DNA of 64,000 nt. Origin: a candidate division WOR-3 bacterium (GTDB taxonomy: Bacteria > Hydrothermota > Tepidihabitantia > B3-TA06). The stretch lies in NCBI GenBank assembly GCA_023128825.1, contig JAGMDF010000082.1, positions 8,626-72,625 on the forward strand. Direction: 5' to 3'. Both the position numbers and the translations under genes were made by a program. This document shows positions 45,831 to 46,436 of the stretch, in pieces. The number at the start of each line of letters is the position of its first letter. Position 1 is the stretch's first letter. Under the pieces are notes generated by a model that worked only from the letters and a program-made list of their open reading frames with translations, did not search any database and was not told where the DNA came from.

Positions 45831-46436
45831 TTAAATTCCCCTAAGCCTTTTCCCGGTAAACCCGAAAGACACAGTAACTCTGGGGGCAACTACCACAGTC
45901 CCGTCCGAGCGTACCTCTCCCGTCAACGAACCCTCCTCAAGATATTTCTTCATAACAGCCTTAACGTCGGTCTTGGTCATCCCTTCGAAATGCACCTCGA
46001 ATTTGGTCGCATACCAGAGTCTCTGCGCCAGAAAACAGTTCTTGAATTCCTCGCCTTCCTTTGTCTTGAGGAAATTCCTGATCGCCTGACGCTTCTTGGA
46101 CAGGATATTGGGGTCGTTAAACTCCTTTACCCTAACGTCTTCAACTTCGTAAGTGACTGAGCTAGCGTGCTGCAAACCTCCTGAGATGTTCAAACCGAAG
46201 TTCTTTGCGCTCACTTTACCCTTAAGACTTAATTTACGAGTGAAGGTACCCACTACGATGCTGGCGTCGTCCGAGGAAGCTGACCACTTCGTCTTCTCCA
46301 GCAGGTCATCCAACCTGCCCTCCTCAAAGAATCCCTTTTTACGTCTGCAGAGAATAGAAGCCGGGTGCAGCCTTCTGGTCGCCACCGGCAAGGAACGTAT
46401 CCCGTTGCGCTTCAAATATTGGACGTAGGTTGCCAT
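45831..46436 (-). CDS. Hypothetical 201-aa protein; candidate gasdermin-N-like pore-forming domain (pattern-based, unverified)
   Basis: The CDS itself is well supported by SD AAGGAGGAG and a consensus promoter. The functional call rests only on collinear resemblance to my recollection of GSDMD/GSDMA3 N-domains (see findings). Confidence 0.35.
   Translation of the reverse strand: MATYVQYLKRNGIRSLPVATRRLHPASILCRRKKGFFEEGRLDDLLEKTKWSASSDDASIVVGTFTRKLSLKGKVSAKNFGLNISGGLQHASSVTYEVEDVRVKEFNDPNILSKKRQAIRNFLKTKEGEEFKNCFLAQRLWYATKFEVHFEGMTKTDVKAVMKKYLEEGSLTGEVRSDGTVVVAPRVTVSFGFTGKRLRGI

Follow-up and report, generated by a model that had tools for sequence, protein, structure and literature searches.

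The stretch analysed here, hereafter the window, comprises 64,000 nucleotides of contig JAGMDF010000082.1 from an uncultured bacterium of candidate division WOR-3 (Candidatus Stahlbacteria), and the element under study is an open reading frame (ORF) of 201 amino acids (aa) located at 45831-46436 on its minus strand. An earlier note on this DNA, made from the letters alone, had read the ORF as a stand-alone counterpart of the pore-forming domain of gasdermins, and the exact protein sequence quoted there is indeed encoded at this position. We have very little doubt that the protein is an accessory, stand-alone gasdermin homologue reduced to the core. The gene and its expression signals are as follows:

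45831..46436, minus strand: coding sequence of the gasdermin-fold protein, 201 aa, pore-forming core only, stop codon included (ORF, PADLOC bGSDM model, AlphaFold2, Foldseek, dN/dS)
46440..46446, minus strand: Shine-Dalgarno (SD) sequence GGAGGAG, 3 nt 5' of the ATG of the gasdermin-like gene (read from the sequence)
46459..46486, minus strand: promoter of the gasdermin-like gene, sigma-70-type, TTGACA-16 nt-TATAAT (12 of 12 consensus positions, hexamers kept in orthologues)

The ORF is a real gene under purifying selection. Its close homologues (n=8, 71-99% identity, about 200 aa) share a common end, ...LRxI, all orthologues use the same initiator methionine, and the pairwise ratio of nonsynonymous to synonymous substitution rates (dN/dS) between orthologous loci is 0.19-0.30. 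For the adjoining beta-CASP and XerD genes this ratio is 0.07-0.12, that is, the gasdermin-like gene is roughly twice as relaxed. The consensus promoter and the strong SD, which had been pointed out from the window only, are kept in the orthologues as well. The start region of the mRNA reads AAAGGAGGAGAUAAUG, and the SD, AAAGGAGGAGATAATG, is unchanged in all four orthologous loci. The promoter hexamers are identical in two of the orthologous loci (L001 and L004) and near-conserved in a third (L005, TTGATA / TACAAT). Since SD, start codon and hexamers are kept across three orthologous loci while the spacer and the flanks drift, we consider the expression signals of the gene to be under selection. 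The encoded N-terminus is MATYVQY, with the first cysteine at residue 30. A further observation concerns the substitution rates themselves: between orthologous loci the dS of the gasdermin-like gene is 0.43-0.79 versus 0.67-1.7 for beta-CASP and XerD in the same pairs, with a dN similar to or above theirs. This low dS could stem from a codon-usage constraint imposed by high expression, or from a younger common origin of the single-gene cassette described below.

When 1.84 billion cluster representatives were searched exhaustively with HMMER, 25 relatives of the 201-aa protein were returned at E<=1e-3, nearly all of them 189-212 aa long; a profile search of a 5.8-billion set gave 42 clusters (192-222 aa), all without Pfam domains. 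The placement of the protein in the gasdermin superfamily holds on three independent lines, namely sequence profiles, the AlphaFold2 (AF2) model and the fold search. The profile check proposed in the earlier note gave a divided outcome. On the one hand, no Pfam family, including Gasdermin (PF04598), reached E<=1 for the 201-aa protein, and no gasdermin model was matched among 39 clade members. On the other hand, the PADLOC model for bacterial gasdermins (bGSDM, PDLC02986) matches the protein with E=1.5e-8 (query 5-194 versus profile 7-211 of 257) and is matched by 18 of 21 diverse clade members. The NCBIfam model prok_gasdermin (NF051890) aligns over 8-202 of its 203 positions with E=2.9e-6, scoring 27 bits against a curated cut-off of 100. 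A profile built from the clade reaches the Vitiosangium (8sl0, 7n51) and Runella (7n52, 9v2s) bGSDMs of solved structure with E of about 4e-4, its positions 7-206 aligning with residues 10-220 of the Vitiosangium protein. A single-sequence phmmer search of the 201-aa protein against the sequences of the Protein Data Bank (PDB) gave no match; to see the homology, the PADLOC or NCBIfam profile or a family profile is needed. Judging from these profiles, the protein is best described as a bGSDM homologue that falls outside the curated NCBIfam equivalog.

The AF2 model, obtained without templates from a 39-sequence alignment, has a predicted local distance difference test score (pLDDT) of 85.7 and a predicted template modelling score (pTM) of 0.81. 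This alignment reaches down to about 20% identity; the nine close orthologues alone gave a pLDDT of 36. When the model was used as a Foldseek query, hits 1-9 were all gasdermins, with the Runella bGSDM as the best (E=1.7e-6), and resting-state bGSDM crystal structures outscored pore-state protomers. The gasdermin fold first suggested by motif order is thus recovered by the PADLOC and family profiles, by the NCBIfam profile below its cut-off and by the structural comparison, and the model predicts it in a resting, pre-pore state. A clade-conserved alternating hydrophobic pattern is found at about residues 69-84, 94-106, 142-150, 156-166 and 181-193, and these stretches include AF2 helices that match the refolding proto-fingers, as in resting bGSDMs. 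A phage origin of the gene was considered and rejected, given that a search of BFVD for viral structural relatives of the protein returned none and that its GC content (0.50) is close to that of the window (0.53).

The relatives form a distinct, rare and uniformly short (about 190-222 aa) clade of prokaryotic gasdermins consisting of the pore-forming core alone, with a patchy distribution across phyla. All members stop a few residues past a nearly invariant VPFGF (pattern VPFGF.GW.[IV]), at the end of the last core strand, and both the motif and the common end point are kept even where identity falls to about 22%. V189 and F191 of the 201-aa protein, both invariant, align with L211 and F213 of the Vitiosangium bGSDM, whose mutation partially disrupts function, and its end corresponds to about residue 223 of that protein. 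Since the chain ends just after the last core beta-strand, it has neither a linker nor an inhibitory peptide of the bGSDM type, and no coding continuation was found in the 74-nt spacer 3' of the gene. No clade member has a cysteine within its first 10 residues; no cysteine is kept throughout the clade, conservation of C30 and C134 being confined to the Stahlbacteria group. Thus, the two absences that had been remarked upon for this one protein, that of the C-terminal inhibitory peptide and that of the N-terminal cysteine, are properties of the clade as a whole. One longer sequence (P0018, 300 aa) matches the clade over its first ~111 residues only, the remainder being unrelated, and probably reflects a frameshift or a chimera in gene calling and not a longer gasdermin variant.

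The closest known proteins are the bGSDMs of Runella, Bradyrhizobium and Vitiosangium (PDB 7n52, 7n50, 7n51, 8sl0, 9v2s), with which the 201-aa protein shares homology over the whole core as well as the amphipathic proto-fingers. Characterised bGSDMs are restrained by a peptide at the C-terminus and by a buried palmitoyl-cysteine, and a dedicated protease releases them. Their inhibitory peptide is 17-67 aa long (PMC13475620) and its removal is toxic; the Vitiosangium protein is cleaved at position 237 of 266, and the engineered active forms without the C-terminal domain (Delta-CTD) measure 237-247 aa. The protein studied here is about 40-65 residues shorter overall and has no linker, no inhibitory peptide and no N-terminal palmitoyl-cysteine (position 3-4), which is needed for killing by the Vitiosangium protein. 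Of the 50 original bGSDMs, 43 have a protease neighbour and seven do not; the window gene adjoins no caspase-like, CHAT, subtilase or trypsin protease and is not in a defence island. In total, four features of bGSDM systems are missing, namely the inhibitory peptide, the palmitoyl-cysteine, the adjacent protease and the defence-island context.

A design consisting of the pore-forming domain only is shared with TrichoGSDM from Trichoplax and RCD-1 from Neurospora (PDB 8jyv, 8jyw, 8jyx-z), neither of which is activated by proteolysis. A 2026 paper and a 2026 review name these two as the sole domain-only gasdermins and ascribe to bGSDMs a short autoinhibitory C-terminal domain. However, TrichoGSDM is eukaryotic and 250 aa long, whereas the 201-aa protein is prokaryotic and about 50 residues shorter. 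Moreover, TrichoGSDM is autoinhibited by a disulfide-linked dimer, for which the short clade has no clade-wide cysteine, and RCD-1 is activated by a heterotypic allelic partner (RCD-1-1/RCD-1-2), whereas no second allele or paralogue is found near the window gene. The 201-aa protein is closer to bGSDMs than to either of them. With the N-domains of mammalian GSDMD, GSDMA3, GSDMB and GSDME, the likeness is at the fold level only (7-17% identity); the protein is much smaller, has no C-terminal repressor domain and no PF04598 match. A last comparison concerns protease-licensed effector systems. Some clade members adjoin the types of enzyme that serve there as latent effectors (metallo-beta-lactamase (MBL), Tle1-like alpha/beta-hydrolase, metallophosphoesterase with CHAT), but those effectors have unrelated folds and are freed by cleavage, while the 201-aa protein has nothing obvious to cleave off. 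In the literature searched, no description of a short, protease-less bacterial gasdermin clade was found, and isolated examples may already be present in published bGSDM tables.

At the level of the locus, the gasdermin-like gene forms a monocistronic cassette of accessory nature, flanked on either side by an unrelated housekeeping transcription unit. The surrounding features that matter to this point are:

45790..46500, minus strand: single-gene cassette with approximate limits (promoter, SD, coding sequence, 3' spacer), about 700 bp, absent from syntenic relatives
45762..45789, minus strand: promoter-like site of the beta-CASP operon, TTGCAT-16 nt-TAAACT, context only (hexamers kept in 7 of 7 loci)
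44365..45756, minus strand: beta-CASP metallo-hydrolase, context only (Pfam/NCBIfam)
43410..44378, minus strand: XerD-type recombinase, context only (Pfam/NCBIfam)
43042..43416, minus strand: Zincin_1 protein, 124 aa, HEIGH motif, context only (Pfam/NCBIfam)
42840..42923, plus strand: tRNA-Leu(GAG), convergent, beyond Zincin_1

The earlier note had described the gasdermin-like gene as heading a same-strand string of beta-CASP nuclease, XerD-like recombinase and small HExxH zincin next to tRNA-Leu. The genes are as described, but they do not form a module with it. The operon spans 43042..45756 on the minus strand, with the beta-CASP stop lying 14 nt into the XerD start and the XerD stop overlapping the zincin start, and it has a promoter-like site of its own. 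This site ends 5 nt 5' of the beta-CASP ATG in the window and in six further loci (L001, L004, L005, L031, L032 and L033), with a differing spacer. Given this distance, and that no SD precedes the ATG, the operon mRNA is probably leaderless or nearly so. Three WOR-3 relatives (L031, L032 and L033, with beta-CASP proteins 77, 76 and 68% identical to that of the window) keep the full synteny, that is, an OEP-MFP-ABC-MacB pump, a divergent coiled-coil gene and then beta-CASP-XerD-Zincin_1, without the gasdermin gene. There, only 107-163 bp separate the coiled-coil gene from beta-CASP, and no gasdermin remnant was revealed by tblastn (best E=1.9). The cassette is limited to one sub-clade, in which beta-CASP shares 82% identity or more with that of the window. 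Since operon and synteny occur without the gasdermin gene, and the operon has its own promoter, we consider the gasdermin gene to be a single-gene cassette, whose history is most simply a single gain with retention since. The close orthologues share the whole neighbourhood because they are closely related.

Several candidate associations at the locus were rejected. A gasdermin/beta-CASP/XerD/Zincin_1 module with the zincin as activating protease is contradicted by the occurrence of the trio without gasdermin in L031-L033, by its own conserved promoter and by its absence beside distant homologues. Reading the beta-CASP protein as CRISPR Cas14 fails on the score (387 bits versus a cut-off of 800) and on the broad occurrence of the protein, with over 7400 homologues across many phyla at E<=1e-100. 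The region between the gasdermin and beta-CASP genes has no significant structure (z=0.24) that would point to a terminator or attenuator. In agreement with what had been noted for the window, scans of this stretch together with precomputed Pfam calls at the syntenic loci L001 and L005 revealed no protein of caspase, trypsin or subtilisin type up to about 10 kb from the gene. In addition, neither a CHAT homologue nor a gasdermin paralogue occurs anywhere in the 64 kb, and PADLOC gave no hits among the window neighbours (efflux pump, coiled-coil protein, beta-CASP/XerD operon, tRNA).

Some further observations on the neighbours can be added. The trio stably combines an enzyme of RNase type with a recombinase for chromosome dimers and a very small metallopeptidase, and is kept in WOR-3 relatives down to 68% identity. 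The divergent coiled-coil gene (46560-47447, plus strand) encodes a Lys/Glu/Pro-rich protein of 295 aa with generic coiled-coil matches only, and is kept at the same position in all WOR-3 loci examined, whether gasdermin is present or not. Its reading as a repair partner of the PspA/ESCRT-III type was rejected, as it has no PspA_IM30 match and is not found beside other clade members. Between the MacB pump and the coiled-coil gene, a pentapeptide-repeat/ion-channel (Ion_trans_2) gene is present in L001 (7261-8880) and L005 (7719-8747) and absent from the window (47448-47832) and from L031-L033. Its presence and absence beside the gasdermin cassette points to this small region as a hotspot of gain and loss. 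Further away, the gene at 53666-57349 (minus strand), conserved in L001 and L002, encodes a 1227-aa protein with a single Baseplate_J-like segment (residues 625-723, E=6e-13) and adjoins a 1050-aa CarboxypepD_reg/Plug (TonB-receptor-like) protein. It lies 7 kb off, with no other tail or baseplate genes nearby, and an injection system carrying the gasdermin was therefore discarded.

Beyond the close orthologues, no gene is conserved beside the clade across about 20 distinct contexts. Accordingly, the suggestion that the zincin, nuclease or recombinase might be conserved beside homologues was not borne out, the distant members being placed in unrelated neighbourhoods. A Bacteroidales-type group has a stable site between amidohydrolases or an aminotransferase and a pyridoxal-phosphate-dependent decarboxylase, and further members adjoin ordinary metabolic genes. 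In a 211-aa subfamily, conflict-type neighbours recur without being universal. In four independent loci of this subfamily, a phospholipase-type gene is found one or two genes away from the short gasdermin: a Tle1-like phospholipase (DUF2235, Pfam E=8e-80 in L020) is found directly upstream in L009 (6876-7976) and L020/L021 (6933-7991), and a patatin is found nearby in L010 (5391-6563) and L028 (1855-2775). This proximity may reflect a functional link or a shared residence in conflict islands. L010 also has an SH3-MBL and a CHAP peptidase, an RHS-repeat protein of 1810 aa lies 2.5 kb downstream in L014 with a homologue in L009, and SIR2 (L016), a STAND AAA_35-WD40 ATPase (L011), a transposase and a group II intron are also among the neighbours.

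The only context with a caspase-like protease, one of about 20, is the metagenome contig Ga0075423_10041394 (L026, 1-4144). There, the short gasdermin, a metallophosphoesterase (475-1830) and a 763-aa CHAT protein (1853-4144) follow each other on the same strand with gaps of 34 and 22 nt, and the gasdermin still ends in ...VPFGFRGWKV. Metallophosphoesterase plus protease is a listed protease-associated effector module (PMC12642450). L026 could represent a form of the short clade tied to a protease, or a gasdermin lying next to a metallophosphoesterase-protease defence module.

For the function of the protein we consider a latent-pore mechanism, which we hold tentatively and at somewhat short of an even chance. 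The 201-aa protein would be made as a soluble, metastable monomer and, without a covalent acyl anchor, the barrier from the resting to the pore state would be high, so that its producer would tolerate it. A non-proteolytic trigger would then cause the amphipathic proto-finger segments to refold to beta-hairpins and permeabilise the cell's own membrane, in abortive infection or stress-induced death. Candidate triggers would be a change in membrane lipids, acyl chains freed by a lipase, or a phage or partner protein. Given that lipase neighbours recur in the clade, free acyl chains or altered lipids are an attractive guess, with a phage or partner protein equally possible. Control would in this way shift from removing the brake to supplying the anchor or the trigger. 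In the Vitiosangium bGSDM, the C4A mutant, which loses the palmitoylated cysteine, is inactive, with bacterial growth almost fully rescued, and C4A proteins are poor in liposome rupture (PMC10153256). In molecular dynamics, the resting state of the Delta-CTD form stays folded and stable for microseconds; palmitoyl insertion was proposed as the driver of the pore transition, and the vacated groove is sometimes filled by a lipid acyl chain (PMC10153256). From the C4A and molecular dynamics data it follows that a protein with neither brace nor anchor could rest harmlessly until pushed. By analogy, the Vitiosangium data offer a plausible answer to the caveat of the earlier note, that constitutive expression of an uninhibited pore former is hard to reconcile with viability.

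Several points weigh against a latent pore former. Pore formation and toxicity would have to follow from the predicted fold and the hydrophobic pattern. Finger 1 is about 7 residues shorter than that of the Vitiosangium protein and the core about 20 residues shorter, and therefore the competence to span a membrane is not guaranteed. A promoter with 12 of 12 consensus positions and a strong SD are unusual for a suicide effector, and in this genome as well as in the Bacteroidales-type group the neighbours are of housekeeping type, with no defence island. Moreover, the NCBIfam score far below its cut-off and the blank in Pfam mark the clade, as far as profiles can tell, as a distant relative.

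Some of the same observations would suit a non-lethal physiological membrane protein, made constitutively and never killing its producer, with a sublytic or structural role (lipid binding, remodelling, or a conduit for release or secretion). The conserved promoter and SD, the housekeeping-type neighbours of the Stahlbacteria and Bacteroidales-type groups, in each of which the gene keeps its place, the purifying selection, a dS below that of the neighbours, as for a well-expressed gene, and the absence of every known brake are all in line with it. However, the gene is accessory and absent from syntenic relatives, it is rare (25 representatives in 1.84 billion) and patchy across phyla, and several members are located beside lipases, RHS, CHAT, STAND and mobile elements, a distribution that a conflict gene fits better. 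We know of no prokaryotic gasdermin with a purely non-lytic housekeeping role, and consider this explanation unlikely, yet deserving of attention. The missing brake would likewise pose no problem for a toxin directed at other cells, exported by a non-classical route (a neighbourhood of the type VI secretion system or RHS type, or lysis) and forming pores in competitors. The antagonism-type neighbours of the 211-aa subfamily (Tle1-like phospholipase, patatin, CHAP, RHS) are compatible with such a role, but these associations concern a minority of loci and are not conserved, the N-terminus has no signal peptide or recognisable secretion marker, no secretion-system genes lie beside the window gene, and no small immunity-like neighbour is conserved. 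We regard this as quite improbable.

Equally small is the chance we give to a degenerate relic, in which tail, cysteine and protease were lost and a soluble protein of unrelated or no function, incapable of forming a pore, was left. At 201 aa versus 237-247 aa, the protein is shorter than any characterised active bGSDM domain, its finger 1 is shortened, its profile scores are weak and its rate of evolution is about double that of the neighbouring genes. Against decay, members throughout the clade share the short architecture, the end point and the nearly invariant VPFGF, as expected of a stable design, dN/dS is well below 1, the expression signals are kept and the AF2 fold is well packed. Taken as a whole, the reading towards which we lean slightly is that of a core-only, stand-alone gasdermin that would act as a latent, non-proteolytically controlled membrane-permeabilising protein.

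A conserved bacterial gasdermin core without the controls of the characterised bGSDMs would mean either that gasdermins can be regulated non-proteolytically in bacteria or that the fold is put to a non-lethal use. This core of about 200 residues, the smallest among natural gasdermins, is attractive for defining the minimal requirements of the transition from resting state to pore, and for engineering. Clade proteins are carried in GenBank as "hypothetical protein" and, considering also the NCBIfam score below the cut-off, surveys of gasdermins or defence systems that ask for a curated score or an adjacent protease would overlook them. It is possible, though in our view rather doubtful, that they represent the first prokaryotic clade of cleavage-independent gasdermins, in which a constitutive core of ~200 residues is licensed by the supply of an anchor or trigger and not by the removal of an inhibitory peptide. 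If true, this would amount to a second logic of gasdermin control in bacteria, and the clade would possibly stand near the ancestral minimal gasdermin.

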